The notes under the pieces: model-generated | What the model was told of the DNA's origin: nothing | What the model saw: the letters and a program-made list of their open reading frames with translations, nothing else | The model's database searches: none | DNA from: Convolutriloba macropyga | Lineage: Eukaryota | DNA: 64,000 bases | Reading direction: 5' to 3' | NCBI RefSeq assembly: GCF_964194025.1 | Contig: NC_134475.1 | Span: 2,480,001-2,544,000 of the forward strand | Part shown: piece by piece, positions 25,751-51,000 of the stretch | How positions within the stretch are numbered: position 1 is the first letter of the stretch | How the letters are laid out: the number at the start of each line of letters is the position of its first letter | Position numbers and translations under genes: made by a program

Positions 25751-26497
25751 ATGCCGCTACCTGAAATAGATATGAACGAATTCCTTATTCCCCAATCAAG
25801 ACGGAATCTCAAAGCAATCGAAGTTGGATTTGCTTCTCAAGTGGATCCGATGCCAATCTACGACCTGAACCGCCCCGTTTCCTGTGGAACCACCACAATC
25901 TGTATGGAATACGACGGAGGTGTTGTTTTAGGCGCCGATAGCCGAACTGCCATGGGAACTTTTATCGTAAGCCGAGTTTCCGATAAACTGACAAAGGTTG
26001 TCGACAATGTTTACGTGTGTCGTTCGGGCAATGCAGCACATACCCAGGCGCTGACCGATGTTGTGACGTATCACATGGATTTTTACAAGATGAATAATAA
26101 AGGCAAAAATCCCCCAGTTGAGCTCGCCGCCAATACATTTCAAGACTTAAGTTATAATTATCGCGACCAGTTAACGTGTGGGTTTGTGGTCGCAGGGTGG
26201 GACGAGGTCAAAGGGGGACAAGTGTACTTAATTCCACTGGGCGGATTGATCCACCGGATGCCGTGGGCTATGGGTGGATCTGGGAGTACGTACATTTACG
26301 GTTATATGGATTACAGTTTCAAGGAAAGTATGACTAAGGAGGAAGCAATTGAATTGACGAAAACAGCGCTGGCAATGGCAATGAGTCGTGATGGAAGTAG
26401 TGGAGGAATTGCACGTGTTGCAGTCATTTCTAAAGACGGGGTCGAAAGAATGACCTTCTCCGAGGATCAGAAAAATTTGCCATTGTTCAGAAAATAA
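25751..26497 (+). CDS. PSMB6: Proteasome subunit beta type-6 (beta1)-like, intronless CDS
   Basis: Propeptide followed by G|TTTICMEYDGGVVLGADSRT...DKLT...CRSG...GGSGSTYIYGY...RDGSSGG. Thr1, Asp17, Lys33 and beta1-specific Arg45 are present. Confidence 0.92.
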   Translation: MPLPEIDMNEFLIPQSRRNLKAIEVGFASQVDPMPIYDLNRPVSCGTTTICMEYDGGVVLGADSRTAMGTFIVSRVSDKLTKVVDNVYVCRSGNAAHTQALTDVVTYHMDFYKMNNKGKNPPVELAANTFQDLSYNYRDQLTCGFVVAGWDEVKGGQVYLIPLGGLIHRMPWAMGGSGSTYIYGYMDYSFKESMTKEEAIELTKTALAMAMSRDGSSGGIARVAVISKDGVERMTFSEDQKNLPLFRK

Positions 26498-27063: not shown

Positions 27064-30000
27064 ATGAGTGGGGGTGCTGTAGAGGCAGCAAAGAAGCACC
27101 AGTGTTCAGTTTGGGCTAAAAAGGTCGAAGCAGCCTGCGAAGAAGACAAGTGGGGACAAGTTCTAGATGCAGCTGAACAGTATGAGCAGGTTAGTTTCAT
27201 TCCAATTACTTTTAAGAAAATAACAAGAGGTCTCCTGTGTCCTTGAGCGGCACTTAATGTTCAACCAGACCTCCCTAAAAGACTCTCAGTTCTTCACAAT
27301 CGTGTGAAAAAAAATATTTATACATTTTTGCCTATAAATGAAGTTTTTGCCTAGTGGTAAATTTATAAAACGCAAGAGCAACACTGCTTTTTTATTACTC
27401 CACATATATACATGAGCTTGTAATACTTACTTGAACAATGTAATACTGAACAATGATCATTTAGGAATTCTGCCGTTCTCTAAGAAAAATATAAAACAGA
27501 GGAAAATTTAGTTTTAATAAAGTTATTCGAGTTCATTTTGTTTGTAAATTTGTGCAATGAAGAATCCATTTTTGTTTTTGTGGCTGTTTTATCATCGTTT
27601 TATGCACTCGCAACCCACTGAACTCTGATGTGTTGCCGTAAATGTTAGAATATCGATCAAACTATAGTCTTAAACTTAGTGAGAATTAGAAAGAAAGTTT
27701 GACTTACCAGATTAGAAAGACAAGCAATATGACTTCGATCAAAGAAATTATATAAATGAATCGTCAAGAAATGGTGCTTATAATCAATATTCGGTTCAAA
27801 TTGGTGAATCTAGATAACTATTTTTAGAGTTAGATTAATTGATGTAAAATCTTCCCAGCATGTATTAAATGATGATGATATCTCCGGAAGTGTGAATGAA
27901 TTCTTAGAAAAGTGCAAATGCATTCCATTTATGGTTCCCTTTGCGACTGATTTGCAGAAGCAAACCATATTGGGTAACCTTTGCGACCCCCACTATAAAT
28001 CACGGTGCTAAGATTAGTTTTGTATCTTGACCTTTTCACACTGATAATGGGTATATATACAGCTGATTTTTGAGTCCTTTTTCATCCCCAAATTCAAATC
28101 ACCATCTTGATCTAATAATCAGATCTCTCCTGTAAATCTCTAAATTCTACTGTAAAATATCATTTTGTTATTCTCTCATTTTTTGAGAAATTAATTCTTT
28201 TACTTAGTTAAAAAACGCTTTTTATTCCGCTTGCGAAAGTCCATAACCCAACAGGTTATGGGCCCAGCAATTTTCTAAGTCATAAAATTGATTTCCAAAA
28301 CAAAACTAATTTGTTGTTGACAGTCATAATCTTGTTGACAGTCATAATCCTTTTCTGCTTATTACCTTTTCTTTTCACAACTGTTTTGCCTGCTCAAACT
28401 CCAATGGATCAACAGACAGTGAAGCTGCTGACCTACACAGGAAAGGCACAGGACTTTCCAATCTGGAGCACAAGATTTGTGGCGATGATGCAGACCAAGG
28501 GACTCTACAAATGACTACTGGGGACAGAGGAGCAACCCAATGAGCCTGCGCCACTGGCCAAGGGGGCAACCAATGATGAGAAGAAGAACCACAAGGTGCT
28601 GAAGGATGCATATGAGAAGGAAGTTGGGACATCAAGAAGAAACGGAACAATGTGTGGTGCCATCTGGCACTGACTCTAGATGCAACAACCCTCATGCTGA
28701 TGAGACATGACTGTGTGGGAGATGATGGCATTGGAGATGGAGCAAAGGCTTGGAAGCTTTTGCAAGAGAGATTTCAGAGTGTGGAGACGCCGACAGTGGT
28801 GACTTTAGTGGCACAGCTTGCTCGACTGCAGCTCGAGAATTCTGAGGATTTGGACAGCTTCTTCATCAGAGGACAGGAGTTGCTCACAAGGCTACAAGAA
28901 GCAGGGGAAGCAGTCTCAGAGACCCTCTTCAACGCCTTGGTCCTCAATGGTCTGCCAATGAGGTATGAAAGTTTTGTTATACAGGAAAGCTTCAACCCGG
29001 CAACGAACTTCACAGAGTTGAGGAAAAGGCTGCAGAACTTTCATAAGAGTGCGGTGCAGAGACACAAGGGACAAAGTGGTTCAGTGGCACTGGCAGTGAA
29101 GCGTGACTTCAAGAAGGGACCCAAGAAAGGAAACTGCTTTGTGTGTGGGATCCCTGGACACTTTGCCAAGGACTGCAGGAGGAAGGAGACAGCACAATGC
29201 AGCAAGTGTGGTGAGAAGGTTCACCTAGACAGGGCATGCAAGAGACAAAGAGATGGAGGCAAACATGAGTCAATGGCAAGGGGTCCAACATTGGCTACAC
29301 CAGACGAGGAATGCTGGGCAGCTCTTACCCAGTGGAAGACAGCAGGCATGCTAGTGGACAGTGGTTGTACAGATCACATAGTGACGAACATCGATGCGTT
29401 CCTGGACGTTGTGCCCATTCAATCAGTGGTCAGAAATCCCAACGGAGAGGCTTCCAGAGTGGTGGGCAGAGGCTGTGTGAGGATCAGCATACCCTCAAAC
29501 AAAGGAGAATTCCAATGCGAATTCAAAAATGTTCTGTGTGTGCCGGACTATTCTTCAAACCTCCTATCAGTCTCAAGATGCACGGAAGGGGGACATAGCT
29601 TCACTTTCGAGAGAGGAAACTGCTGCATGAAACTCCAGAAGGGAACTCGGGTAAAACTAACACAAGAAAATAATTTGTTTTACTTACCCTTCAGCGTTCT
29701 AGAATTAAAGATGAGTTCCAACAGCGTGAAACTTGACAGTGCAAGGAAGTGGCACAGACGATTGGGTCATTTGAATCAAGCGGATGTGGTCAGGAATGCA
29801 CCAGAGACAGTGGGGAACTCGATGATGTATGCAATTTGTGTGCATTGGCCAAGATCACAAAGACTCCAGTACCAAGAGTGGCAGAGACCCAAGCATAAGA
29901 GAAGCTGGAGAGGGTGTTCACAGACGTGATGGGATCTTTCAGAGTAGAGTCACTGTCAGGGTTCCGGTTCTGCATAGTGTTTGCAGACCAGTACACGAAG

Positions 30001-33000
30001 TTTGTGTTTGTGGAATTGCTTAAGGCAAAGAGTGAAGCATTGGCCAGCGTGAAGAAATTTGTTCTCAGTGTGGGGTAGCCCAAGAAGCTGAGGCAAGACA
30101 ATGCGAAGGAGTTTCTCTCAGAGCAGTTCAAGACGTACTGCTTAGATGCAGGCATTCTACAGGAGAAGACCATACCAGAGACGCCACAACAGAATGGGTT
30201 AGCTGAGAGGTGCAACAGGACACTGCTGGAGATGGCAAGATGTTTGCTCATTGACTGAGGACTTCCCAAGATGATGTGGGGAGCAGCAATTCTTCACGCA
30301 GCAAGGATCAGAAACTTGGTTGTGAGACGAGGAGAAGAAAAATGCCCAGCAGAGCTGATGAGAGGTATAAAACCTAAGCTTCTAATTAGTAAATTATCTA
30401 TTTTTGGTTGCACAGTCTTCATGTCTTCATGAGGAAGAGGGACAGAGAAGTCAGCAAACTTGAACCCAAGGCACTGGAAGGAAAGTTTGTGGGTTACACT
30501 GAAGGAGAAAACGGATACCTGGTGTACATACCCAACACACGCAAGGTGATGGCAGTTCGAGATGTGATCATCAAGGAGTCTGAAGTGGGCTCAATCCCTG
30601 ACAACAAAGAAACGGCTGACCTACTAGATGATGGGTCGGAACTGGGAATCTGGCGCCCAGATGATGGTCATCAAGACGATGACAACAGAGAACGACAGGA
30701 CACATCTACTGCAATAAAGGAGGAGTGGCATGACGCAGGGAGCGTGAATACTCAAGAAACAACACTGAGACAAGAGGCCTCGGATGTTGGAGAAACAGCA
30801 CTAAATGAAGGATCTACTGCAACAAGAGGGAGTCACAGAGTCACTGGAAGACAGTGACACAGAAGACTTCTCACAGTTAGAGACAGTTGGCTTCAATGAA
30901 GATGCACTGGAACACACGGACAGAGCAGAGCCCAGACGAGGGACACGAGCAAGAAATGTTCCTCAATTTTTTGGAGAAATCCGGACCCATCTTGCTGTGA
31001 CTGAGGGCGACTATGTGGAACCCAAAACAGTCTACGAAGCCAAGCAAGGTGACAATTGGGACCAGTGGCACCGGGCAATGAAGGACGAGGTCAAGGCACT
31101 CCAAGACAACGGGACTTGGAACCTAGTGAGACCACCCACAGACATGGACGTCATACCGGGCAAATGGGTCTACAAAGTGAAATTGGGACCCAGTGGTCAA
31201 GTGGACAAATACAAAGCGCGCTATGTGGCGAAAGGCTTCAAACAAGTGGAAGGACTGGACTACTTTGAGACTTTTGCGCCTACCTGCAAGCCAGAGACAT
31301 TCAGGATTCTACTTCAGCTATCAGCGAAGCAGGGCCATGTGATGCACCAATTTGATGTCAAGACTGCTTTCCTGCACTCACCAATCGAGGAAGTGTATTT
31401 GGAACAGCCACAGGAGTTTGTAAAACGCGGATCAGATGGGGAGAAGTTAGTATGTCGACTAAATAAATCAATTTATGGTTTGAAACAGGCTGCTGACAAC
31501 TGGTACAAAGAGCTGGCAAACGTCCTACTGAGACAGGGGTTCACCAGAAGCAGGAACGATCACTTCTTGTTCGCAAGATCAGAGGCAGAGGATGACACCT
31601 TCATCTTGGTCTGGGTTGACGACATCATAGTAGCATCAAGAAGTATGACAGTGGTCTCTGATGTCAAGAAGGCACTAGAAGCAACCTTTCACATGGAAGA
31701 CAGAGGGAGACTACACTGGTTTCTGGGTCTAAGAATCAGACGAGAAGAGGGCAAAGTCACAGTCGACCAAAAACGCTACATAGAAACAATGCTTGAGCGG
31801 TTTCAAATGGATCAATGCAAACCCTCAAGAATTCCAGCTGATTTGAATTTGAAACTGCACAGCACAAAACGGAGACGAAGAAGGACCAGAGGATCTACAG
31901 AAGCTTGGTTGGATCACTTCTGTATCTGGCCAAACAGACGAGGCCAGACATCATGTTCACAGTCAACATTCTGTCCAGACACATGAATGCACCTACCAAT
32001 CAACACTGGATGTGCGGAAAACGACTTCTGCGATATCTTCAAGGTTCAAAAGGTTTAAAACTTACTTACACAAAAGAGGCTAGTTATGATTTAGTGGGGG
32101 AAAGCGATGCAGACTGGTCTGGAGACGTGAACGACAGAAAATCAACAACGGGCTATTACTTCAAGCTCAACGGACGTGGCGCAGCACTCAGCTGGGGTGT
32201 CAAGAAGCAGGCCACAGTTGCTCCTTCTTCATCAGAACCAGAACATCAGGGCATGGCAGCAGCAGTTCAGGAAGCACGCTACCTGAAACAACTTCTAGAG
32301 GATTTTGGCATCCAACAGAAACGTCCAATAGCAATTGGAGAAGACAACCAAAGTTGTATCAGACTCTGCCAAAACCCAGTCATGCACAAAAGGAGCAAGC
32401 ACATCGAAACAAAGTTTCACTTCATCCGGGACAAGACGGAGGATGGGACTATTTCAATTCATTACGTCCCTACAGACAAAATGGCAGCGGACATCTTCAC
32501 AAAGTCCTAACCCGTTTCGAAAGTGGAAACATTCAGAGCAGTTTTGATGGGAACAGACTCTACGCAATCAGATCAAGTCTGAGTGGGGTGCTAGAATATC
32601 GATCAAACTATAGTCTCAAATTTAGTTAGAAAAGTGCAAATGCATTCCATTTATGGTTCCCTTTGCGACTGATTTGCAGAAGCAAACCATATTGGGTAAC
32701 CTTTGCGACCCCCACTATAAATCACGGTGCTAAGATTAGTTTTGTATCTTGGCCTTTTCACACTGATAATGGGTATATATACAGCTGATTTTTGAGTCCT
32801 TTTTCATCCCCAAATTCAAATCACCATCTTGATCTAATAATCAGATCTCACCTGTAAATCTCTTAATTCTACTGTAAAATATCATTTTGTTATTCTCTCA
32901 TTTTTTGAGAAATTAATTCTTTTACTTAGTTAAAAAACGCTTTTTTATTCCGCTTGCGAAAGTCCATAACCCAACAGTAAATTTGTTGTGTAAAGAGCAA

Positions 33001-36000
33001 TTTTGCTCCCACTCGTTTTCCCTCCGAGTTATGCCCCCAAAATTCAGTGAAGGTAAACTTCTTAAGCTTACGCCAGAAACTAAGAAAGTCAATCTCGACA
33101 GTCGTCTGAAAGCAATGCATGAGACTGATTCCAAGAACAAACTTTTTTCTGCATTCTTTACGGCGAACGTGGTTTTATCGCGCAATTTTTTAATTGCTCT
33201 TTAACGAAGTTCATAGCAATTATTATAAACGTGTGTGTTTTTTTATGCAAATTTTTCGCTTGACCGTTTTTGCGCTTTTCTTCTAGAACATTTTTTGACT
33301 TCTCACTTGCCTTTATCACGCTTTCGTTCTTCCTTTTTGAGTGATCTCTATTGCTCTCACTCCGAAGTAAAGCTTGTTGCTAATATAAAGTCGGTTGCAG
33401 CACAGCAACAGGAAGGCGCTGACAGGCGAGTGGGCTGTGCATCTCGTTATGGATCGGGAGGTCAATGGTTCGAATCCCGGCATGGTCGATTGTTTTTCCA
33501 CCCGCCTGTCGTTCGAGAGCCATTCTTCGAACATTAATCGGTTTATGTTTGCTGAAACGAAAGCTGCTATTTTTTGGTTGGGAAGCACTTTTTTGACATG
33601 TCCTCATCTCGTTCCAACTATTGTTGTCCAGCTGTTATTGTTAATAGACCAATTCAAGAGCCTACATCAAAGTTTGTGAAGCATCAGGTTGCTACAGTTA
33701 AGAGTAGCTCTCTTGGAAAAGATGAATCTACGACTCGAAGAGGAGTATTGGTTTTCTCTCGTTTTTTTTTTTACAGGAAGTAGATTTGTTCAGGCGGCAT
33801 TTTGACCTAAAAGCGAAAGTGAGAAAAGCTGTCTTGGTGAACAGATTTTCGCTAAGCGAGAGAAGTTTTTTGATCATGTGCTGCGTTTAGTGAATGACTT
33901 TTTGACTTTGAAAAGTAGTTTTGACTGAATGGCACATATAGATAACCGTTTTTAGACGTTTTTTCGTCTACGTGACCGTTTTTTTGCTTGTAATTTGGTT
34001 TTTTGTTGAAATAATTTTTATTCGATGCTATATTGAAATGTTCGAAAAATTTTGAAAAATTGGTTCGAAAAAATTTTTGTCGATTTTTTGGCTTCAATCA
34101 ACGTGAAATGTTGTGAAACATGTTTTGTAAGTGAAAAAAATTGTCGAAAACACTTTTTTCAAAAACTGAAATTTTGGTCCCCTAGGGGGACAATAACTTA
34201 TAAAAAATTTTGAAAAATTGGTTCGAAAAAATTTTTGTCAATTTTTTGGCTTCAATCAACGTGAAATGTTGTGAAACATATTTTGTGAGTGAAAAAATTT
34301 GTCGAAAACACTTATTTCAAAAATTGAAATTTTGGTCCCATAGGGGGACAATAACTTGTAAAAAATTTTGAAAAATTAGTTCGAAAAAATTTTTGTCGAT
34401 TTTTTGGCTTCAATCAACGTGAAATGTTGTGAAACATGTTTTGTGAGTGAAAAAAATTGTCGGAAACACTTTTTTCGAAAAATGAAATTTTCGTCCCATA
34501 GGAGACAATAACTTGTAAAATTTTTTGAAAAATGGGGCCTAAAAAATTTTCCTTGATTTTTGGCTTTAATCAATGTGAAATGTTGTGAAACATGTTTTGT
34601 GAGTGAAAAAAGTTGTCTGAAACACTTTTTTCGAAAATCGAAATTTTGGTCCCATAGGAGACAATAACTTGTAAAATTTTTTGAAAAATGGGGCCTAAAA
34701 AATTTTCCTTGATTTTGGCTTTAATCAATGTGAAATGTTGTGAAACATGTTTTGTGAGTGAAAAAAGTTGTCTGAAACACTTTTTTCGAAAATCGAAATT
34801 TTGGTCCCATAGGGGGACAATAACTTGTAAAAATTTTTGCAAAATGGGGTCTAAAAAATTTTTGTCAATTTTTTGGCTTTAATCAATGTGAAATGTTATG
34901 AAAATGGGGTCCAAAAATTTTCAACGCTATTTCACTTTTAATCAATATGAGAAGTTGTGAAACACGTTTGGTGTGATAAGCAACAACATTAATCTTAACA
35001 CCACACCCCAAACACTCCGCTAAACATCAGCCAATTACAATTACCTCAAACATACACCACNNNNNNNNNNNNNNNNNNNNNNNNNNNNNNNNNNNNNNNN
35101 NNNNNNNNNNNNNNNNNNNNNNNNNNNNNNNNNNNNNNNNNNNNNNNNNNNNNNNNNNNNNNNNNNNNNNNNNNNNNNNNNNNNNNNNNACATAAATATA
35201 CACATTGATAAAAAAAACCAGAGTTGTACAAGGAAATAATTTTTCACGTAATTATGTGTACAATTATGGTCATAATCACTTATGTCCATAAATGTACACA
35301 TAAATGGGACAAAAACAAAAAAAAATAATAACTAGCCTGTTAGTAGATGTATAAAATCATTAATGATATATTGAGTAGAGAGTCATCGGATCATGCCCAA
35401 ACATGTTCAGGGTCACAAAACTTTCAAAAATAAATTAACCAATCGGAGTGCTTGATTTATTATTCAAGTTGACAACCAATCAGAATTGAAAGATTTATAA
35501 ACAAAAACTCTAAACGCTCACGTTCAGTAAACAGTAAATAATGAACACAATAGGAACAAAAGACATCAAGCTCATTCATGAGAAAGTTTTATCACTGAGA
35601 GGTAACATAAATTTTACACACATATCTTATCGACAATTATATTTCGTAGCTGCTTGTTCTTTGTTAGATCCAGAAGTTGACGGAGAAATAGCACTTAAAT
35701 TTAGACCCTATGGTGGTTTCATTGGAATTGATAATTCAAGACTAGATCCCTTATTGAAACGGAGCAAAGTGCTACGACTTCATGCTGCACTGCATGACGC
35801 CGCTGGATTTATAAAAGATTGCCGAAACAAAGTCCCTGGATATGTTTACGCTTTCCGTTACTCACCAGTAAACAATTGTCTTTTTGGACACCTGACAGGA
35901 ATATTATTCATTCTATCAGTGAAAATTTTTCATTCACAATTGTTTCGTGAATTGGAACGTTAGAAAATTTTGGCAGCAAAACCACAAATATTATTGTCCT

Positions 36001-39000
36001 CGATCTCGAAGGTTTCAACCTCAAGTCACTTGGTTTTATTATTAAAGAACTCAGTTTGTGTTCCAGTTACAACGATACAATATTTTTCAAACCACCGCTT
36101 AAATTTGCTGATTTACCCGCACACGATAGACAAACTGTTATTTGGCTGACCAATAACCTACACGGTCTTGATTGGGACGAAGGTGATATACCTTACTGTG
36201 ATTTGAAAACAATCTGTCTGAGTTTTAGTTTCCGATTCACACGGAAAAACTTTTTTGCTAAAGGCATTGAAAAGTGTGAGCTCCTCAGTAAGCTTTTACA
36301 AAAAACTGTTTATAATCTGGAGGATCTAAATTGTCCCCGAATCTCAGAGATAATATCAGAAGAACAAGTTCCCTCCTGTTATCTTCATTCAAACTTTCGT
36401 TTAACAAACGATCAATTATCAAATCACTGCGCGGAACGTAAAGCAAGAATATTCTCACAGTGGACACAAAGTGATGTACAGAGAAGACACGGCAACTTTA
36501 ACAACTTATCTGTCAGACAACTTGAAGATATTCACTTGCTTGACTCCACTTGACGATCAGCCGATTGTAATATTCAACAGAGTTCAGGATCCCTCTCCAC
36601 CAATACAGAATAATTTTTCAAGTGATCAACAGAACCGAGCGAACTATCTCAACAATAAACCAAACACAGCACAACAACCGCGTTACAACTCGCTTTATAG
36701 CGCAGCAGCAAAACGTTATTTTGCATCCATTACTCTTTCTCCCGACGAACTAGACAGCTTTAGGGCTTTCCTGCCCGTGATAGATAATTTCTATCACTTC
36801 CAACTGTACGTAAAAAATAAACAGAGAGCTCGAGAACATCGGAATCAGTTCAATTATGGCTATGAACAAAACAAACAATAAGCCTATGCAGTCCCCCAAA
36901 GAGCAGCAAATCCCACGTTGGAAGCAATGGGCGGACAAAAAAGTTCCTCAATTTAGATTGAAAAAAACACCACCAGAACGTGAGCTATCACTTATTGAGG
37001 TGCCGAATGAATTGCGATTATATGTCTTGGAGCACCCCGAAGTTGAAAAAATCTTCAGTCAACCATCGTTCGAGGAAAATGACTCATCAACCGTTTGTTA
37101 TAAACTAGAGATAAAAAGTCATATTAAAGGTTTCAATTTGTTTGAGTTCTGGTACATGAAACAGTTGCCCTGAGAATAATTCAAAAATTTAACATTTTGT
37201 ATCATTCTTGTTTCAATTCACTTTTCAATTAATTATTTTTCTCCAATGAATCAAAGAGACGAGGCTGACGCCGGTATCAGTAATTTAGTCTTTGATGTGA
37301 ACAACAAGGAGAGGCCCCCATGGCGTTGTTGTTCAAATTCAACAGTGCCAAGGTCCGAAGTAATATTTTTTGTTCAGGTTAGTATCATTGTCTTAATGAT
37401 CATTCTTTGCTTCTCTATGCTCTTTCTATTATCAGAAAGCTGTGAAGAGAAATCAATTTGGATTGCTCTCTTATCGAGTTTAGTTGGTTACATTTTACCT
37501 AATCCCAAACTATGAACAAAGTTATTCTTACACATGACAGGGTATTCATGTCTATTGTAGGAGCAAGTGGTTGTGGTAAAACAGAACTCTTGTTTCGGAT
37601 GCTAAAAGGTTCGACCTTTTATCCACGTTTTGAGAAAATTTATTATTTTTACAAAGAGTTCCAACCACTTTTCAAAGATATGCAACAAGTTATACCAGGG
37701 ATTGAGTTTCTAAAATACTCAGGCTTTGATATAACAAAAAATCTATCACATTGTCTGCTTATCTATGACGATTCATGTGAAGAAATCTTCAACGATAAAG
37801 AATTTGTAAAAATAGCTACCTCAGGACGTCATCGCAAATTACATGTTATATACGTCAAGCATAATTTGTTACATCAAAGCAAATGGTCCAGAACCATTGA
37901 TCTGAATACAACACACATAATATTATTCAAGTCGCTTCGTGACATTCAACAAATTGAATATCTTGGAAAACAGTTGAATTGTCTCCAACTGATAAAAGAA
38001 GCATACAAACTAGCAACTGCGGAGCCCTTTGGACATTTTATTATTGATCTCGATCCCAAAACCAGTCAGGGTTTACGATTTGCGTCACATATTATTGGAC
38101 CTAATCCTTCAAGTTTTTACATTCCTTCGGAGGAAGCCGTTGTTACATCAATTACGAATGAAAAGGAAACATTTGCTTATGCTCAAGCAATGGGCAAATA
38201 GCACAAACAAGAACTCCAACATTGAATCCGAGTTACTTAAAGACGGCGACTTCATTTGGTTTCTGAGTGACTGTGTGATGAACGTACTCTCTGGAGTTGT
38301 TCCAGTCAATAAAAAAGAACTAAAAAAATTTGAAAAAACTCTGCGTCAACTTTCGAACAGGAAAGTAGGGAAAACTGAACGGTTAAAAATAATTCGATCT
38401 CCCTCGGGCAACAATCTCATTCAACTCATAGCATTACCCTGCATTGAATATCTAGAACAAAATGCATACTGAAGAGTTTGTGTTAATACCTAAACAGATG
38501 TATACAAGAGAACAACCTCATGTCTCTCAATTACTCAGCAACAAAAATATTCACAATCCAGCCAAGCAGATATCACTTCTCCAGAGAAACAAGTCACCAT
38601 CAACTCTCCTTCTGCCTCGCAACAGGATGCAGAACAACAAACTGACGCTTCAGTGGATGATAGAAGTACAATAAACGAGCCTATGGCGAAATCATTTACG
38701 ACAGACAACACATCGACTATCAAAAAAGGAGTGCTGAATGATATTAGAATCTTGAAGGGGATAAAGTTTGAAAGAGCGAATTCAATACTGGACATAATAG
38801 AGGAATCAGATTCTGTTTCCTTGGACTCATCAAAGAGATTGCTTATTAATGGTACAAATACAGAAGTTCTTGCTGCTACGTTTCTTTACAATTTACAGCA
38901 AAACACTTGCAAATTATCTTTCGAACAATTCAGTGTATTAACGCATCTCGATATTGGTTCGCATTTGACTTGTAACACATACGCCAAAAAGTTTCTAAAT

Positions 39001-42000
39001 TTATCATCTGAAGAGAGACTGCAATTTTTGGAATATGAGTCGGACAAAGAAGTTGCTTCAAAGTCCCAGCGAAAGAAAACAAAAGCTTCTGACAACGACC
39101 AGAGAAACTTTGAAGAGGCAGAAAAAGAAATCAAACCAACCAGCCCCTGGGAGAATTACTTCCTATCAAGTTAAACAGTTAGACAAATTGTACACTAAAG
39201 GCAGTGCTGCATTTGGTAGCATTGCTAACTTGAAGAAGGCTAGCGGTTTCACCAGAGACAAAATTGTTCGCTATCTTCAGTCGAAAGCCCCGTACACAAA
39301 ATACAGACAATTCAGGAAAAGTTTTCCCCGACTGAAAGCTGTTGCATATAGAATAAATGAAATCTGGTCTGTCGATGTTGCGTATATGGATAAAGTTGCT
39401 CAACACAACAACGGTGTAAAATACTTGTCAGTGGCTGTGGATGTTTTATCACGTTACTTACGAGTTCAACCAATGAAAGCTTTATATGCAAAAGATGCTG
39501 TTGAAGCGTTCAAAAAAATGATCAAGAAGAAACAACCGGAAAAAGTATGGACAGACAAGGGATCAGAGTTCAAAGGAGATTTCAAAAAATTTTGTGAAAA
39601 GAAAGGAATTCATTTATATACAACAGAAAGCGAAACCAAGTCGGCATTTGCAGAGAGGAACATTCGATCGCTTAAAAACATCATTTACAAATATTTGGAA
39701 GAAAAGTGGACTTGGACATATATTGAAGATTTACCCCAGTTTGTAAATACTATAAACAGTCGTGTTAACCGGGTAACCCATTTAGCACCTAATAGAGTTT
39801 TCAAAAAACATGAACCAATTTTAATATCATTAGCAATCAACACAACAAAGTACAAACCAAAATACGAAAAAGGAGACCTTGTTAGGATTGCAAAGCACGA
39901 CGAAAAATTCAGAAAAGGTTATAAACAAAATTATTCTGACGAAGTTTTTACGATATTCAAAATTGCTACCGTGAGTCCACCAACGTACAATCTTATAGAT
40001 GCAAACAACGTTATAATTGAAGGTAAATTTTATGAACCGGATTTAGTCCAAGTAAACGTGTTAGTTACTGCAGATGATTAAAATGAATCCCGCCAAAGAA
40101 TTCACAATCGATCTAATATCCAACGCATCAATGGAAGTTTTTGGTGAAAATACAATGGCAAAATTCCGTAACCAGTTATCTCAACCACTTATTTTGGATG
40201 GAGAATGGCAAGTAGCTTTATCTTCAATATCCTTCCCATCAAACATCAACAACGTCAATTCAAACGGGTTAGTCGTTTATAAAAACTCGGGAGTGGAACT
40301 CGACGCCTCAAATAATCGCAGTGGACACCTTAGAAAAATTCGCAAAGGCATTTACACTAGTTTGGATCAACTCATGGATGAACTTAGGCGAATTGCTCAG
40401 TTTAAACAATTTGATTTTACTTTTGACAAAATTACTCATAAACTGGTTTTACAATTCGGAGCGAATGAGGGTTTTTCATTTGAAAACGAAGAAGTTCCAA
40501 GTATTCTCGGCTTCAAGGGTATAAAAGACAACTCGCATGATGGATACATTCATATTGGATACAAATCACACAAAACTCTCAATAGACACCAAAGTGATTT
40601 CCCAGTCGATATAACCTGTGGCTCACAATTAATATTTGTCTACATAGACATTATAGAATATCAAATTATTGGAGACGTGAGAGCTCCTGTAATTAAAATC
40701 ATTGAGACCGAAAGGCGTTTAAGAAACGGCAGCATAAACACTGTTACACCTATTCATCACAAGACATTTACAATTCTGGATTACAAGCCCATACTTTCTA
40801 ACAATATTCAGAACATTAAAGTGGAGTTGAGGAACGAAGCCGGAAAACTTATTCCATTTAATGGTACAGGAAAAGTGATAGTAGGCTTAAAGTTTCAAAA
40901 AAACAAGTGAAATGGAAGCTTACTACAGCAACCAAGCATCGCAGTCGATGCCACATTTCTCCGGTCATTATCGTCAAAGAGGAAGTGGCTTTGGAGCCCT
41001 CGCAGCAGGTATTGGAAGAGTTGCTTTACCATTGGCAAGAAGAATTATATGGCCCGCTGCCAAAAGAATTGGTCGAGAGCTTTTAGTGCAGGGTGTACCT
41101 GAGTTGGTAGAAGTAGCAACGAAACGAAAGTCGGCAAAGCAGGCGTTGAAAAGCGCGGTTGCAAAAACAGCCCGAAAACAATTTGGTGGTTCTCTCCACT
41201 CACGCATAACACGGGGCCGGCAAGCTATTAGACGTCGAAGACAACACTTTGCTAAACCTCGAACCTACAAGAAACGTTTCACTAAAAAAATCATTTCTCG
41301 AAAACCACAGCCAAGAAGAAGTCGACTGGATTTTTTCTCTCGTGTCAAAAATGCGAACTAATATTGTAATACCTTCCGAAGCCACTCACAGCTCATTGGA
41401 CTTATTTGAAAAACCGCCTTTGCTTGTTACCTTTGATCAATCATTTGAACAAAAAACTGGACCACTTTATTCTCCCTCTGGATCATCGCTCGAATTTGAA
41501 GTTGTAGGCGATCGCAACAATTTCATAGACTTGCAAAAAATTTATTTGGAAGTAAAATGTCGAATACAAAATGTCGATGGAACTGATTTACGATATGACG
41601 CAGGTGATCCCGCTAATACTGATGCCGCATTTTTTGTGAATAATGTCCTTCATTCCCTATTTGCTGACTGTACTGTTTCTGCAAATGGAATAAAAATCTC
41701 TTCTGCCAATGGACACTATGCTCACAAAAGTTTCATAGAAACAGAATTCTCGCACGGGACAGATGCAAAGAAGACTTGGTTAAAGTGTCAAGGTTATGAG
41801 TATGAAGCAAACCCTAGCGCAATTGCTAATGCATTAAAAGATGCAAGAAAGCAGGCTGCGAGAGAATCAGCTCAAATTACCCTTTATGGAAAACTAGCTG
41901 TTGATTTTTTCTCGTGCGAAAAACAATTAGTAAGCGGAGTTACCCTGAGAATTTCTTTCCGAAGGTCACAAGATGATTTTGCCACTATAAGTGAAGCAGC

Positions 42001-45000
42001 TGGCAAAAACTACAAAATAAAAATCGATGAAGCAAACTTATTTGTTAGAAAGATGACTGTATCAGACAATGTAGTCGGAGCCATTGAGAAAACACTTTTG
42101 AGAACACCTGCAATATATCGATACAATGAAGTGATAACAAAAACTTTTCTTGCAACAACGGGGCAGCAAAGTTGGAAGCACGAAGATATTTTTACAAAAG
42201 AACCCATAAGACGACTTATAATTGCATTGTGTGCTGGTGATGCTTTCATTGGGACTAACACAGTAAATCCCTTCAACTATCAAAAATTTGGGCTGCGTGA
42301 GATTACAGTGTTCCGAAACGGTTTCGCTACAGCTGGTACACCAATGTCAACAATTGACAACAAGCGTTTGTACTACAATTCAATGAACGCATTAGCCTAT
42401 GTAGAAAACGGTCATGGAATACCATTGAGTGAATTTTCAAACCATTTTATAATGTTTTCGACCTGACTAGTACACAAGAAGCCACACATGATTTTATTCA
42501 TCCTGAACTAACAAATTCGTCTACATCGGTCGAGCTAAAATTTGATACAGCTTTAACAAACAACGTTGAAGTTTTCTTCCTCGGTGAAAAATCATCTACG
42601 GTGTATATTGACTCTCCAAGAAACGTATCCAAAAATATTCTGCCTATGAACGCATACTAATGGACGAAGATCAAGTTTATATTCAAGTTCAAAAGTGCAA
42701 GCATCTCAAATACAAATTTCGAGGTGTTTATGCCGCTGACAATTATCCGTTAAATTTACCTGTTAACAGTTTTATAATTGTGAATGCATCGCGAGCTGAT
42801 TCTTTTGGTTCACATTGGGTGATGCTTGCGAAACGCTACGCATACCCCGTACTATACTTTGCAGATCCGTTAGCACTACCTCTGACTGCCTATAAAGACA
42901 TTTTCTCCCGCCTACAGCAATGTACTGATTTACATATGATGATGGATATTATGGAGCACAGAAGAGATATTCAGTCTCCCCTGCAATCAGCAGACTCGCA
43001 ACTGTGTGGTTTATTTTGCATCTATATTGCTCATTATTTCTATAGCAGTAAGTTTCCATTTGTACCTGATGTAAATGAAATGCAATTTTTGGCATTTTTA
43101 AAACATATGGAGTGAAATTGAATTAATTGTTCTATCACAGTACTATTTTAGACAGTAGAATTTTTACAGAACTGAAAGTTTATTAAATAGTCTGAAGTCT
43201 CACGTACAAAACTTCCCTGCCCACTTAAAATTATATCCATAATCTGATAGAGAGAACCAGAATATTCACCGAGCATTAGTTGACAAAAACGTTTTACAGT
43301 CACATCGGGGATAGTAGAAGCACGTTTGTTAGAAGTGGTAGTAGTAATGGTTGAGAGTCTTTTCACAAGGTTAGGCAGAGGAAGTTGTTTTTTAGTTTTG
43401 TTGGTTGAAACATGATTACATTTTGACAAGTACTCCACAGCAACATGTAAGCGAGAGACAATAGCACCATGAGCAACAAAATTTTTCGTAGGCAAAATAA
43501 GGATTTTAAAACAAGTCACAAGGCAAGGTATCGTCGCAGGAGCATACGAAGAGAAATCAATTTTATCTTTGGGACCCGTATATTCAAAAATGAGATGCCA
43601 ATGATTGGAACCAAACAAACAACCATCGATAACAGTCGAAGATGAATGATAACCGTACGCATAATTTTCTATTGCAGAATCTTGAGGTTTTGGTTCTGTG
43701 TCGCAAATAGTGTATTTGAATCGTTTTTGAAATTTTTTGAAGTATTCAGGACTGTTTTCGTACATAGCTTCAACCATAGTAAGAGACTAAACTGAGTGAG
43801 TAAACAGTGAATTACCTCTATGAATTATTGGGTTTGAGTTGATAACATGGTGTAAACAAAATTTCAAGGTCGTTCGAATACGAAAATTCTTTACATTGTT
43901 GTTATTTTTATTGCTTGTAAACAAATTCTGTCTAGACATTAAGTAAACAAACTATAGCTGTCTGGTTTCTACGACGCTCAGCAATTAAAACAAAGCTGTC
44001 GCTTTTTCCCGAAGTTCCAAAATCTTTAACCTGAGGTAAATTTTGGGTTGTTTTCATTGCTTTTCAAATAAATTCTGTCTAGACATTAAGTAAACAAACT
44101 ATAGCTGTCTGGTTTCTACGACGCTCAGCAATTAAAACAAAGCTGTCGCATTTTCCCGAAGTTCCAAAATCTTTAACCTGAGGTAAATTTTGGGTTGTTT
44201 TCATTGCTTTTCAAATAAATTTTGTCTAGACATTAAGTAAACAAACCAGATTTGTTGAAGTTGTGTACACGAATAATGGCTGTCTTAATTTCCCGAAGTT
44301 TTTAAAACTTTGCTGTGATTGGGTGACGACTTGAATTAAAATCCATATTTGTAACATAACTAATGGTTCCAACTTTATGGCTTGTAAACAAAGTTTCCGA
44401 AGACATTAGGTAAATAACTTGAGTCTGATGGAACTTTCCGATGTTATGTAACCTTTGTTCTGATTGGCTGACGACTTAAGATATAATCTATTTTTAGTAA
44501 AACAACTAATTGTTCCAACTTCATGGCTTGTAAACAAACTTTCTGAAGACATTAGGTAAATAAATAAAGGTTGACGGAACTTTCCAATGTTATGCAATGT
44601 TTGTTATGATTGGTTGATGACATGATAAATCCATTTTTAGTAAATAGACTTATTGTTTCAACTATTCTGTTTGTTTATCGTCATGAGAAATCATTAAGTT
44701 TTTGGGGAACAGGAGAACCACTTGTTTACCGAATTTCTATAGAAACGTTGACTGTTAACTTTTTAAAAAATTTTATCTTTCCTAATCCGATATTTAGTCA
44801 CTTTCTAATTTTTGGGAAATGCCTGCAAAAGACCGACATTTACAGATCAGCTGTGAAAAATGTGGAAAATCTATAGTAAAATATCACATTGCTCGCCATA
44901 GAAAGACTTGTTCTAGCGGTACCTTATACTGCAAGAAACGAAACTGTAATTTTGCAACAAAAAATTCGGCAGAACTATCGTACCATATTGCCAAATCGCA

Positions 45001-48000
45001 TGGATCGAAAAAGCGTAACACCTTAAACAAGTGCGTTGTTTGTCAGAGAGATTTTCCAAGTTTCTACTCGCTGCAGCTTCATCGCAGGAAGATACACCAA
45101 GTTAACACGAAAGTTGGGAGCTTAAACACAACCCGTGTCCGTGAAATAGTTGATGAGTTGAATGAAGATAGTGAAAAATTGAAAGAGGAATTAGCAGCAT
45201 GTCAGCATTTACTAGTAGATGTGCACGCTGAGCATGGAAGACAAGAAGTTTTCAACTTCAGCCTGTCGAAATTGGACACCAACGAAATCAACAAAAAACT
45301 TGATGAAGTTTTTGAAAATCTCAAATGTGCTGCAAAAGTTAACCTAGCTTTGGGGTTCCTGTTGCACAACGTAGAGAACAACGACTACCGTTATTATTAT
45401 CCGCACGAAAATAATTTACTTCTGGATAGGGCGCATTTGTTGAGCAATAAAAACGATTTACTCAACCTTCAAAGTGAAATTGAAAAGTTTGACTTGATTG
45501 AAACCTGTACACAGGAACGTCAGAACTCAAAGTGGCGATTCGCTTTAATTACGAACGTTACCATCTTTGCAGCACTCTTAAAAAATATTCCTTTGGGTTG
45601 CCTGGATTCTGTTCTTCCGGAACCTTTGTTAAGAAACCCAGAAGTTAATTGTCTGGTTTCAAATGGACATGATGTACCTTATAACGATAACTTATGTCTA
45701 TTCCGCGCAATTTCCATTCATTTATTTGGATCCGTAGATGTTGAACCACATGCAATGCAACTGTTTGACAATTTTGTTTCGGCCACTGACTGTGATCCTG
45801 AAAACTTCATGGGAGTTTCTCTGGATCAAATCCCAGTAATTGAAAAATTAGTCGAAAAAAATATCTTCATCCATGATTTTACCATTGAAGATGGTGAAAT
45901 AGTTGGTGAACTTATTCGACGAAGCATTGAACGATATGAAGAAAACATTAAATTACTTCGCTATAACAACCATATCTGTTATGTAAATGATATCAACAAA
46001 TTCTTCAAGAAGTTCCGCTGTCCCAGCTGTGACGTCTTCTTCAATCACTGTGGACATTTTAATCGCCACTTACGAACTTTCAAAGAACGAGTGAAAAATA
46101 TCTATCCGAGAGGTGTTTATTCGTTAAAGGAAACATTGTTTCAGAAACTTGAAAACTTCTCAATCGCTTATCCAGAAGATTGTACCCTCTTCAAAAATTT
46201 TGCCGTCTTCGACTTTGAAGCAATATGTGACAACTCATTGGAAATTAGTAGCTCTGCTACAACATCATGGATTGGAACTCATGTACCAGTATCTGTTTCA
46301 ATTTTCTCCAATCTGTTGAAGGAACCAATTTTCTTGTGCGAAGAAGATCCTAATCGTCTCATCATATCATTTGTTGCTCAACTTGAAACATTAGCAGCAA
46401 AAAACAAAGCGGACATGAGACCTAAGTTGTTGGCGGTGGAAGCGGAGATCAAAACTAGGTTGAGTGATATTTCCTCTAGATTGCAAGTTGTTTCCGAAAC
46501 TCAACCAAATATCAGTAACAAAACGGAAGATAGCAATGCATCTGAAAATTTTTTACGATTCCAGCAAAAGCAGCTCCTTGATCTCCAGCGTCATTTTGAT
46601 AGTTATGTTGACACTTTACCAGTTTTTGGATTCAACAGTGGAAAATAGGACCTTAACTTAATCAAAACTTATCTCATTCCTCATCTAATAACTGATAGAT
46701 CTATTCAACCTACGGTAATAAAGAAGGCAAACCAATTTATATCTTTTAGTTTTGGTGACATTCAGTTTCTCGATATTCTGAACTTTCTCGGTGGAGCTAC
46801 ATCTCTGGATTTATTTCTGAAAGCATATCAGTCCGAGGAGACAAAAGGATTTTTTCCGTATGAATGGTTTGATTCGTTGACAAAACTTGACTGTGACAAA
46901 CTTCCTCCCTATGACTCATTTTTCAGCAAACTGAAAAACTTTAATCCTTTGGAGAAGGAGTTTTCTGAGTTCGAGAAGTTAATACAGCGTGGGAAAGACG
47001 AGAAGATAATCCTAAAGGAGATGGGACTGAAAGAGAAGCCGCTGTCAGGAAAACAAAATTATACTCTTTTAGCAGATTTGTGGAAGAAGGAGGGTATGAA
47101 AACTTTTCGTGATTTCCTTCGATGGTATAATAACAAAGACGTGTACCAACGTTGACTGCAATGAGTAAAATGATTGAGTTTTATCATAATCGGAACATTG
47201 ATATATTGAAGCGCGGTTGTATACTTCCAAATTTGGCTAATATTTGTCTTCACAAGTCAACAAGTTCAAAATTTTATCCGTTCGTCGATAGCGATAAAGA
47301 TTTACATGAAAAAGTTCGAAGTGAAATGACTGGTGGGCCTTCTATTGTCTTCAAGAGGAAAGCTGTTGTAGACAAGACATTCATCCGAACATCAAACAAC
47401 ATTTGTAAGGCGATAGTTGGAATAGACGCCAGCCAATTGTATCCCTTCGCCATGTGTCAAACGATGCCAACGGGTTTATACACTAGGTGGGAGTTCGATT
47501 CTGATCTCCAAAAGTTCAAAGCTCGTCAGAACAAGATTAGAAAATTTGAAAACATGGTTATTTCTTACTATCAAACAATCAGACCAGACTGTACTATTGA
47601 GAGCATCTATACAACTGGAAAACAGAAAAAAATTGATTGGTTTAGTGTTGATGGCTTTTGTGGACACTGCAATACAATTTTCGAAGCTCTCGGATGTTAC
47701 TACCATTTCTGTCCCTGTAGAGAAGCTCAACCCTCTCTTAGCGAGGAAGAACTTAAACATGGTCTCCAGAAGCGAGAATCTGATAAGTTAAGGAAAAAAC
47801 ACTTGGAGAAAAAGGGCTACAAAATTATCGAGATGAGGGAGTGTGAATGGTGGGATCAGGTTCAAATGAGCTCTTTTCTGAAAAATCACATTAGAAAAAA
47901 TTTTCCCTACAAACTACCCTTAAGCATGGAAATCCTGCTGAAGCGAATAGATGAGGATAAGTTATTCGGTTATGTACAATGTGACTTAGAAGTTCCGGAG

Positions 48001-51000
48001 GAGCTCTACGAACGATTCGCAAACTTTCCTCCAATTTTCAAAAATAGCAACGTTGGAAGAGAAGATATTGGAGATTTCATGAGAGAGTATGCTGAAAAAA
48101 ACGATCTATTGATGAAACCACAACGAATGTTGATTTCGAGTTATAATTTAAATAATGGAATAGTTATAACGCCATTACTGAAGTTTTACTTGAAGCTTGG
48201 ACTACGTTGTACTAAAATATACCGATTTGTTGAGTATACGCCACAAAAGTGCTTCAATGATTTTGTGCAATCTGTTGTTGATGCGAGACGAAAGGGAGAT
48301 GAAAATCTTGACTCGAGCGTTGTTGCTGAGACTATGAAGTTACTTGGGAACAGCTCGTATGGTTATCAGATTATGGATCGAAGTCGACACACCGAAACTC
48401 TCTATCTTAATGAAGAAAAAACGCATAAAGCAATTAATAACCGTCTTTTTAGAAGACTAAATAGCGTTTCGAGAGATATCTATGAAGTTGAACTAGTGAA
48501 AAGCACAATTGAACATCGCGAACCAATAATTGTTGGATTTTTTATCCTTCAGTATGCAAAATTGAGAATGTTAGAGCTTTACTACAACTTTTTTGACAAG
48601 TTCTGTGATGTTAAAAAATTTGAAGAGCTTGAGATGGACACTGACTCTCTGTATATGGCACTAGCTCATGAGATTCTCTATGAATGCATTCGTCCCGAAA
48701 TGAAGAGCACTTGGAAAGAACTCCGAAGTAATGACTGTGTAGAAAATTTTCGCGCTGATTGTAACAAAAATTTTTTTCCGAGAACTTGTTGCCCTAAACA
48801 TGTGAAACATGATAAGCGGGAACCTGGATTATTCAAGGAGGAATTTCGATGTACTGAAATGTTGTCTCTATGTAGCAAAACTTATTGCTGCTACGACTCT
48901 AGAACGAAGAAAACTAAGTTCAGCAGCAAGGGACTCAACAAGAATGTTCTAGAAAAAAATAATGATGGACCATTGCAGAAGTACAGAAAAGTACTGGATG
49001 AAGCAGTGAATGTATCCTCGACTAACAGAGGATTCAAAACAGTAAATCATCAAGTTCTCACGTACGAACAAACTAAAAAGGGACTTTCTTATTTCTATCC
49101 AAAGCGAATGGTGGAGGCAGATGGAATACATACAAAACCTTTGATGATCTGAAAATAAAACTCTACTTTCAAATATTTTACATCCGTCATCTTTATTTAC
49201 TTTCGCTGATACTTGATAGATTCTGATTAGATTTTAAGTGTTTTGAGTAATTTTGTAGTGTATTGTATAACTAGTCTTGGTATTCATTGTAATTGATTAA
49301 CTATCGTTCGGGAAAAAAAACTTTGAAAGCTGCTTTATTTTTCATTCAAAGTTAAACATGGACAAATCGAATGAGTTCCTTAATCGTATCATCCTCCTTA
49401 TATCAATTAGCTTTCCTTATAAGGAATGTCAGGAATTTATTCAATCTTTAGTAGCGTTGATCAATTTTCGTTATTGTTTTCTGTGACGTCATAAATCCAT
49501 TTTATAGCGTTCTTTGTGACGTCATAAATAGTATGCATTTCGTACTCATCAAACTCTTTCCCTTTTGATGAAAAAAAAATACAATGACTAATTAAAAATA
49601 ACATTGATTAGGATGTTCCTTAATCATCCCACTATGTGAACATCCAAGAACAGTCTTAATACATGTGAGCATCTAAGACTAATTTTAATGCTTGTGAGAA
49701 GCTATAGCTAATCTTAATACATGTAATACTATACCTAATTTTAGATGTAGAAGCTATACCTAATCTTAATAAATGTAGAAGCTATACGTTATCTCTATAC
49801 ATGTAGATTCTATGCCTAATCTTAATACATGTAGAAGCTATACGTTATCTTTATACATGTAGATTCTATACCTAATCTTAATACATGTAGAATCTGTCTT
49901 ATTACAACTAATCTTATAAAATTTTATTCATATCCTTATATATCATACATTAATATCTGATTCCTATCTTTATACATTGCTAAAATAATTCAAGGGCGAC
50001 CGAAGCGAGCCACAACAGCTATAACCAATCTTAATACATGTGGGTTGCCACCCCCCCCCCCCCCCCCCCGGGCACCTCGGTCCAGCTATATACTACTCAC
50101 GTGTATCTTTTTTTTAGTTTTTTTTTGGCTTTTTTCTATTAATATCTTCATTTTTGGGTCTTTCAGTCGTCTTTCTGTCAAAAATTAGTTAATATGGCAA
50201 CTCCCTTTTTTAATTCGTTTACTCAACGCCCTTTTCTACCTCAATGTAATTTTGTTTTATGAAATTGTACATATGCTAATCCGATTTTGGTAGTATTTTT
50301 TCCAATTTCTGTCAGTTTTTTGTTTATATTTTGTTTTTAATTACTAGAAATAGTATTTTATTTCATTATAGGGGACTTTAATTTCGTTTCAATAAAAATT
50401 CATTCATTTTTTGGCGTTAAGTTCTTGAAAATTCAGTTAAGATTATTTTCATAAATGCAGTCTTGAAAGTTTTTTGACCTTTTTTTTGCAAAAAGTTCCA
50501 ATTTTTCCTATGTTTGAATTCTGTTTTTTATTTTTTTATTCTGTTCAGGAGGATGGATTTTTTCTCGGATGACTCGTTGTCTTTTCGATATCTCGAATGC
50601 TGAACAATGAAATGTATTCCTTTTTCTTTACTTTTTAATTTGATTTTTAACTTTGAAAAATCAAGAGTCTTTTTGTTACGGTGTTTCTTACATTGTGTCC
50701 ATATTCTTCACATTGTAGTTAGTATCATGCTAGCTTTGTCCTGCAACCTAAATTTATTTTTGGTATATTGATTTTTTCAGTTGTAAAAAAATAAATGATT
50801 TCAGCTTTTTCTTAGTTTTTTGTCATTTCTTTGGTTTGCAATTGATTTCATTCAACATATGGTAGTACTGAGAGTTTGATGGCAAGCTTTCTCCAAAATT
50901 TCCGCTTATGACTATTTACTGCAGCTTTCTCCCAGCCTTGGTACTAATTTAAACGATTTTTGTCTTTGAATATTCTTCTGCTTATGTCTTTTCTATGATC

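Follow-up and report, generated by a model that had tools for sequence, protein, structure and literature searches.

A conserved Polinton gene encodes a protein with a predicted HUH Rep-like fold that is probably not an active Rep by motif III

Introduction

A Polinton in the 64,000-nucleotide stretch of the Convolutriloba macropyga genome analysed here (the window) carries a minus-strand gene that an earlier note proposed to encode a stand-alone HUH endonuclease of the rolling-circle Rep type. The question raised by this locus is whether a protein-primed, integrating element has captured a Rep and, if so, whether the protein still nicks DNA through a catalytic tyrosine or has been put to another use. 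HUH domains in several states are described for dsDNA viruses. Papilloma- and polyomavirus origin-binding domains are DNA-binding proteins built on a dead HUH domain (PMC6668415, in the part available), and U94 and avipoxvirus apvRep are dead HUH domains in which the His motif is lost too (PMC10193959, likewise in part). According to the accessible sections of PMC11253617, mriyaviruses have intact HUH motifs, are predicted to be active, encode helicases and depend on a host polymerase, and the available portion of 10.64898/2026.06.19.733378 reports an HUH gene in the PLV clusters Zora/VC102 and VC218, with an rve integrase alongside in some.

Results

The host element and the state of its genes

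Pfam matches to a protein-primed PolB, an rve integrase, an A32 ATPase and a protease identify the element as a Polinton, with the following features in the window.

37512-38201, plus strand: A32-like packaging ATPase (Pfam Pox_A32, E 2e-5)
39035-40081, plus strand: rve integrase (Pfam rve, E 9e-11)
41351-42466, plus strand: major capsid protein (MCP) with a premature end, placed by gene order without a Pfam match
42660-43115, plus strand: adenain-type protease, tail-to-tail neighbour of the HUH-like gene (Pfam Peptidase_C5, E 5.9e-6)
43148-43777, minus strand: gene P0001, with a predicted HUH/Rep fold, an ORF of 209 aa
43919-44663, no strand: non-coding repeats of ~147 bp in the ~1 kb spacer from which the HUH-like and PolB genes diverge
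44819-49152, plus strand: protein-primed PolB, split into three ORFs (weak DNA_pol_B_2 Pfam match)
50092-50097, plus strand: right terminus of the element, ACTACT (five sister stretches lose their match at 50097-50101)

The names MCP, penton and core protein are presumptive, being assigned by gene order without a library match. PolB is interrupted by an in-frame stop that ends 44819-46648 and by a frame change near 47134-47161, and since the gene is split its Pfam match falls below the cut-off. The MCP frame is open for 371 aa, compared with 432-436 aa in five of six sister copies, the sixth being left out of the length comparison as a start-frame artefact. The earlier note had drawn attention to an intact HUH-like gene beside broken PolB and MCP genes, and all three states are confirmed, but intactness is not special in this element: judged against sister copies, the ORFs of the integrase, penton, core protein and protease have kept their full length as well. 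Because these four are equally intact and the HUH-like gene is short, its state in the window copy is uninformative alone, and the notion that selection after insertion had kept it intact was dropped. The remaining minus-strand ORFs of at least 70 aa in the element either overlap plus-strand genes (four) or cross a stretch of Ns (one).

Sister copies lack the near-exact duplication that makes up the repeat pair at 43919-44212, and they have both the 158-bp tandem repeats (34045-34962) and the 28-bp repeats (49640-49920) found near the ends of the element. Two accessory ORFs, at 35541-35963 and 35951-36553, are by their motifs presumptively PLA2-like and DEDD/MAEL-like respectively; neither has a match in a Pfam scan. 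Individual sister copies are rearranged, with a deletion through the protease (L002), relocation of a 1.8-kb internal segment to the left (L121) and a local duplication (L007). Elsewhere the window holds a Copia-type LTR retrotransposon whose LTRs are 99% identical and whose gag-pol is split (27643-32977), a proteasome subunit ORF without introns (25580-26497, Pfam E 5.5e-43), and an open frame of 851 codons (7161-9716) for which a Pfam scan gave no match.

The HUH-like gene and its motifs

The motifs named in the earlier note are all present in the 209-aa ORF at the positions it gave: FKYTI at aa 20-24, H44 (codon 43646-43648), H59-W-H61 (43603-43595) and Y116-L-S-K119. With patterns fitted after the sequence had been seen, 20,000 shuffles of the protein reproduced the ordered motif triple 14 times and HuHuuu on its own 99 times. 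The parts of the gene referred to below are as follows.

43418-43777, minus strand: N-terminal Rep-like domain, aa 1-120, with an extra helix (105-120) bearing Y116 (AlphaFold model; fold matches cover aa 15-117)
43595-43648, minus strand: predicted metal site H44, C53, H59 and H61 (conservation, and alignment of the histidines to RepB H39/H55/H57)
43496-43525, minus strand: C85 and helix 86-94, the predicted motif III equivalent (conservation, profile alignment and structural matches)
43502-43504, minus strand: I92, predicted on the same evidence to occupy the catalytic-Tyr slot
43421-43432, minus strand: Y116-L-S-K119, motif III of the earlier note, not conserved as a catalytic motif
43163-43312, minus strand: small C-terminal domain, aa 156-205, conserved and with a predicted alpha-alpha-beta-beta layout (pLDDT and dN/dS), preceded by a low-confidence linker

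A large family in a fixed position and under selection

A search of the window's own genome with the window protein gave at least 151 matches from 150 scored candidates, and one with a relative 35% identical to it gave at least 150, with further families besides. Protein searches yielded 148 clusters with a single-protein query and 347 with a profile query (identity down to ~25%), and 141 representatives of the family at 50% clustering. None of the ten divergent relatives that we looked up, in Logan, JGI/IMG, NCBI and ENA records, carries a name. One of these proteins, P0182, has at most ~37% identity to anything scored in the window's own genome, and the family therefore extends beyond this assembly. 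Scans of IMG/VR (queries A1 and P0259), a JGI metagenome scan (P0182) and a plasmid tblastn search (P0259) found no relative, so all of the genomic context described here is drawn from the window's own genome.

The position of the gene is constant. In each of the 15 loci examined, 9.9 kb long and picked from this genome to span subfamilies, the order is penton, core protein, MCP and protease, after which comes the HUH-like gene, inverted and tail-to-tail with the protease; the position holds in elements with differing PolB types. By the Nei-Gojobori method the window gene has a dN/dS of 0.18-0.38 against five copies, and 15 pairs in a second family give 0.10-0.26, values of about 0.15-0.2 being representative. 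The protease and MCP are under tighter constraint (0.02-0.26) and the linker of the HUH-like protein is looser (0.23-0.70), with 0.07-0.17 for the C-terminal domain, aa 156-205. The search for homologues in other Polintons that the earlier note had called for thus returned many, with purifying selection in both sets compared (0.10-0.38), and shows that this is a real, old and conserved Polinton gene.

In the divergent families (L033-L042) the gene is accompanied by a different PolB, with extra small genes upstream. In the part of these elements that was fetched, this PolB shows no tblastn match to the window PolB; it has zinc fingers and matches endonuclease VII weakly. The pairing of one capsid module and HUH-like gene with different polymerases suggests polymerase swapping. 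Two small conserved genes sit between the HUH-like gene and PolB in these families, as listed here together with one in the window.

L033, 5329-5685, minus strand: small conserved gene
L033, 6243-7085, plus strand: small conserved gene
L041, 5337-5780, minus strand: small conserved gene
L041, 6498-7184, plus strand: small conserved gene
Window, 36474-36881: small conserved gene

Those between the HUH-like gene and PolB look PC4/ssDNA-binding-like to us, an assumption for which Pfam gave no support, and in one stretch (L047) one of them is present six times in tandem.

A predicted Rep-like fold

Pfam scans of the window protein, and of sets of 43 and 56 relatives, gave no significant family, and PDB sequence searches with proteins of the family gave nothing credible. 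An AlphaFold model built from an alignment of 149 of the 321 family proteins, picked for N-domain coverage and low redundancy, has a pLDDT of 84.4 and a pTM of 0.63; one built on 43 close sequences had a pLDDT of 38.5 and could not be used. In the model a disordered linker joins an N-domain (1-120) to a small C-domain, with pLDDT of about 90 or more over aa 161-200.

When the model was compared with 48,161 chains by VIA-align without bias, the top seven matches were Reps (Z 4.9-5.8), followed at rank 8 by glutamyl-tRNA reductase (Z 4.6). Realignment against 996 chains placed HUH Rep nuclease domains in all of the top 17 ranks (Z 4.5-6.0, rmsd 3.0-3.5 A, 81-87 residues each), with papillomavirus E1 or other Reps at ranks 18-22 and the first unrelated row at Z 3.1. 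Every Z here is below 8, where a match may reflect a common arrangement alone, and the assignment therefore rests on the consistency of the ranks and on the histidines rather than on the score. Reps from gemini-, nano-, circo- and vientoviruses and from pMV158 outrank the library's many ferredoxin-like folds, and the motif II histidines fall on strand 59-65 of the model, in which the Rep helices between strands are short or absent. The earlier note had also called for a Foldseek comparison, and here the outcome was divided: two libraries returned nothing at E <= 0.001, with Reps recurring among the weak rows of both, whereas VIA-align ranks Reps first. We conclude that the protein probably has a Rep/HUH nuclease fold, as predicted from the model.

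Conserved residues and the register of motif III

Conservation was counted in 56 sequences that are mutually less than 50% identical. In this set H44 (53/56), C53 (53/55), H59 (54/55), H61 (54/54), C85 (54/56) and G104 (54/56) are near-invariant, and the first five at 95-100% despite overall identities of ~25-35%. The histidine triad of the earlier note is therefore borne out. Its motif I is degenerate: T23 is kept in only one of 56 sequences, position 25 is T, S or C (16, 12 and 11 sequences), and what is retained is a hydrophobic strand (20-25) and P29. Except for K18 (42/56), the N-domain has no conserved acidic or basic catalytic partner. Mean-field covariation over the 149 sequences (Neff 78) was too noisy for placing C53 and C85.

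The proposed catalytic tyrosine fares differently among close and distant relatives. Y116 and K119 are nearly constant in 43 close relatives (42/43 and 41/43), which is why the AVEYLSK motif looked convincing, but across the non-redundant set the column is Tyr in 37 of 56 sequences and Phe in 12, with K119 retained in 15 of 55. Phe at this position is found in four amplified clusters, P0265 (91 members), P0267 (65), P0268 (59) and P0270 (66), and given this membership it is not confined to decayed copies. No alignment column has Tyr in more than these 37 sequences.

Profile and structural alignments point to a different helix. An hhalign comparison of the N-domain with 23 Rep_2 proteins places H44/H59/H61 on H39/H55/H57 of RepB and I92 on Y99, its catalytic residue (PMC5714925, in the part available), although the match is weak (probability 6.5%, with 5 of 100 block-shuffled controls reaching its score). 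The Y99 column is Tyr in 23 of 23 rows of the Rep_2 control, compared with nine of 56 at slot 92 here (L15/F10/Y9/H6/I5). With a four-row CRESS profile the alignment took another register, which was not significant; it pairs AVEY with the VEY of Reps and so favours Y116. The 17 structural Rep matches end at model residues 106-117. From PCV2 Tyr96 (match end 112, model 109), FBNYV Tyr79 (96, model 106) and MDCV site 91 (106, model 108), the catalytic sites project to model residues ~89-93, reading from range end-points with gaps ignored and not from atom coordinates, and residue 133 of RepB, well beyond Y99, pairs with model residue 117. These end-points and the I92/Y99 pairing identify helix 86-94 as the predicted motif III helix and place Y116 on an added helix. 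In the same sequence register, C85 would occupy a helix-capping slot (N/S/G/A/R in the Rep_2 rows), two turns from the Tyr slot.

The reading of Y116-x-x-K119 as catalytic motif III is thus disfavoured by its place beyond the Rep domain in these matches as well as by its variability, and a caveat in the earlier note, that CLVTCFKIL might be the motif III helix with the Tyr lost, turns out to be the better reading. The stand-alone, helicase-less form that it described also stands, as a weak search found no longer relative and no fused SF3 helicase among proteins of 476-2000 aa, and the window gene stops at 209 aa with a non-helicase C-domain. The protein is probably not an active HUH Rep by motif III, and probably derives from active HUH Reps.

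Element ends

A candidate left end of the window element is an AGTAGT at 33914, for which there is no matching TSD, TIR or hairpin. Four sister copies of the same subfamily have a hairpin of ~200 nt just inside the left AGTAGT (L123:233-433, L130:3035-3235, L132:3250-3451 and L145:566-767) and no long TIR. The hairpin is near-perfect (~-105 kcal/mol, z ~-23 where folded), and one copy that bears it has a verified TSD, ATTGTA, and a terminal repeat of 9 bp only. A left end was also sought in sister stretches L121, L125 and L127, where none was found. Six of eight elements fetched with both ends have ordinary TIRs of ~100-240 bp and TSDs, and the HUH-like gene is present; the other two comprise one without a TSD pair and one of the hairpin type. 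Since TIR-ended elements carry the gene, it is not a hairpin-resolution module as a family, and a proposal that the gene tracks hairpin ends was ruled out on the same ground. The single canonical nick nonamer in the element, at 49723 on the minus strand, is inside the 28-bp repeats.

Endogenous CRESS-virus sequences

The same genome contains an endogenous CRESS-virus genome in two tandem arrays (L048-L057; G000 C5 at ~7.95 Mb and C9 at ~39.89 Mb). The repeating unit of ~1.9 kb has a Rep spread over two ORFs and a capsid-like gene opposite, with 15 Viral_Rep matches.

Discussion

The most likely explanation, to which we give somewhat better than even credence, is that this conserved Polinton accessory gene encodes an exapted Rep domain acting as a non-nicking, metal-stabilised DNA-binding helper. 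A captured rolling-circle Rep would have lost its Tyr and most of the back-face helices, while H44/H59/H61 and C53, perhaps with C85, would coordinate an ion with a structural role, probably zinc. The sheet's open face could then bind the element's own DNA, most likely the non-coding region between the HUH-like and PolB genes or the strands displaced in protein-primed replication, and such binding might tune early transcription or replication of the element, with the small C-terminal domain serving in self-association or partner contact. Of what the earlier note inferred about a captured Rep, the idea of an exapted origin-binding protein is supported and that of a Y116 nickase is not. Retention of the His triad, unlike in the known exapted HUH domains, may equally fit residual chemistry.

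Such chemistry would be that of a Tyr-independent enzyme, with the metal of the His triad being catalytic and DNA or RNA cut by hydrolysis or through C53/C85. The 95-100% conservation of H44, C53, H59, H61 and C85 is an active-site-like pattern. However, His3Cys is a saturated structural zinc ligand set, no acidic or basic partner other than K18 is conserved in the N-domain, and C85 would by its sequence register lie in the capping slot, away from the Tyr slot; we regard this possibility as unlikely. In its favour, the dead HUH domains described in the sources available in part have lost the His motif. An extended version, which we regard as quite unlikely, has such a nuclease (His triad plus Cys) process replication or excision intermediates, with the window subfamily thereby swapping long TIRs for a parvovirus-like hairpin while keeping pPolB and integrase. 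The four sister copies with a terminal hairpin and no long TIR have also been considered as substrates for active rolling-circle or rolling-hairpin nicking through Y116, which would resolve the hairpin end of this subfamily. Near-constancy of Y116 and K119 in close relatives and the similarity of AVEYLSK to AVEYCTK of the CRESS Reps compared are in keeping with this, but the structural matches put Y116 outside the Rep domain, amplified families have Phe at that position, K119 is not conserved, six of the eight end-fetched elements have TIRs and TSDs with the gene still there, no helicase fusion was found, and the sole nick nonamer falls in the 28-bp repeats; we consider a Y116 nickase highly improbable.

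The protein might instead not be Rep-derived, being an unrelated metal-binding protein of ferredoxin-like fold whose HxH arose by convergence, such as a factor of the virion or of host interaction. Z scores below 8, the lack of a significant sequence or Foldseek match, and the short or missing inter-strand Rep helices of the model would all fit, but Reps of several families outrank ferredoxin-like folds and the three His positions agree in spacing with RepB, making this rather unlikely. A role as a decoy, in which a dead Rep would interfere with co-resident ssDNA viruses or rolling-circle transposons by binding their origins or Reps, can draw on the tandem CRESS-virus Rep arrays in the same genome (15 matches at two places) and on the non-enzymatic roles discussed for apvRep in the available part of PMC10193959. 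The constant placement of the gene, directed away from PolB, suggests that it serves the element, and we think a decoy very unlikely.

The origin-binding domain of pMV158 RepB (Rep_2/Rep_OBD, PF01719) resembles the protein in fold (Z 4.9-5.3), in having an upstream His and an HYHVL-type motif II at similar spacing, and, from the accessible part of PMC5714925, in having no helicase and a second C-terminal domain. It differs in that D42, Y99 and H102 are invariant in RepB/Rep_2 (23/23), whereas this family has a variable Y99 slot, no Asp and two invariant Cys. The family has no Pfam match (best E 0.06, in one member), and a Rep_OBD search of the own genome found none. The best structural matches are CRESS Rep nucleases (TYLCV, FBNYV, WDV, PCV2, MDCV and vientovirus; Z 5.0-6.0 over 81-87 residues), from which the protein differs in its degenerate uuTu motif I (T23 in 1/56), and in having no YxxK in the equivalent helix and no SF3 helicase found.

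The papilloma- and polyomavirus origin-binding domains, HHV-6 U94 and apvRep are captured, Tyr-less Reps under selection in dsDNA viruses (PMC6668415 and PMC10193959, both in part), and the gene described here likewise has a predicted HUH fold without the catalytic Tyr under purifying selection; papillomavirus E1 matches the AlphaFold model at Z 3.6-4.3. In the portions of these sources available, E1/LT origin-binding domains, U94 and apvRep lose the HUH motif and mostly keep helicase parts, whereas here the His triad is kept, Cys is gained and there is no helicase. Mriyaviruses and the PLV clusters are, in the parts of the reports available, alike in having an HUH gene within a double-jelly-roll dsDNA virus; compared with mriyaviruses, the window element has a protein-primed PolB and its HUH-like protein has lost the Tyr. 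Adintovirus/Polinton accessory genes (Oncoid, Adintoc, SSDBP and NS2-like) resemble this one, in the available part of Starrett et al. (PMC8502044), as conserved genes upstream of PolB in animal Polintons with a PLA2-type virion module. The main text and supplement of that paper, as far as available, carry no HUH, RepB or nickase label, and some unnamed Adintoc group may be the HUH-like family. In the open literature searched we found no report of an HUH gene in pPolB Polintons, including the accessible parts of PMC11071296 and PMC11296320, and no occurrence of HUH or hairpin in that of PMC8097293.

These data give a structural identity, at the strength of a predicted fold, to a previously unnamed conserved Polinton gene that is present hundreds of times in one genome and has relatives in further datasets. 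In terms of HUH exaptation the protein appears to represent an intermediate stage, at which the nucleophile is gone and the metal site remains. Capture of a Rep by a protein-primed integrating element would extend to Polintons, for which we did not find it reported, a route of gene transfer already known in poxviruses, herpesviruses and mriyaviruses. With its five defined residues, this small soluble protein may bear on how Polintons exit the chromosome and begin replication.
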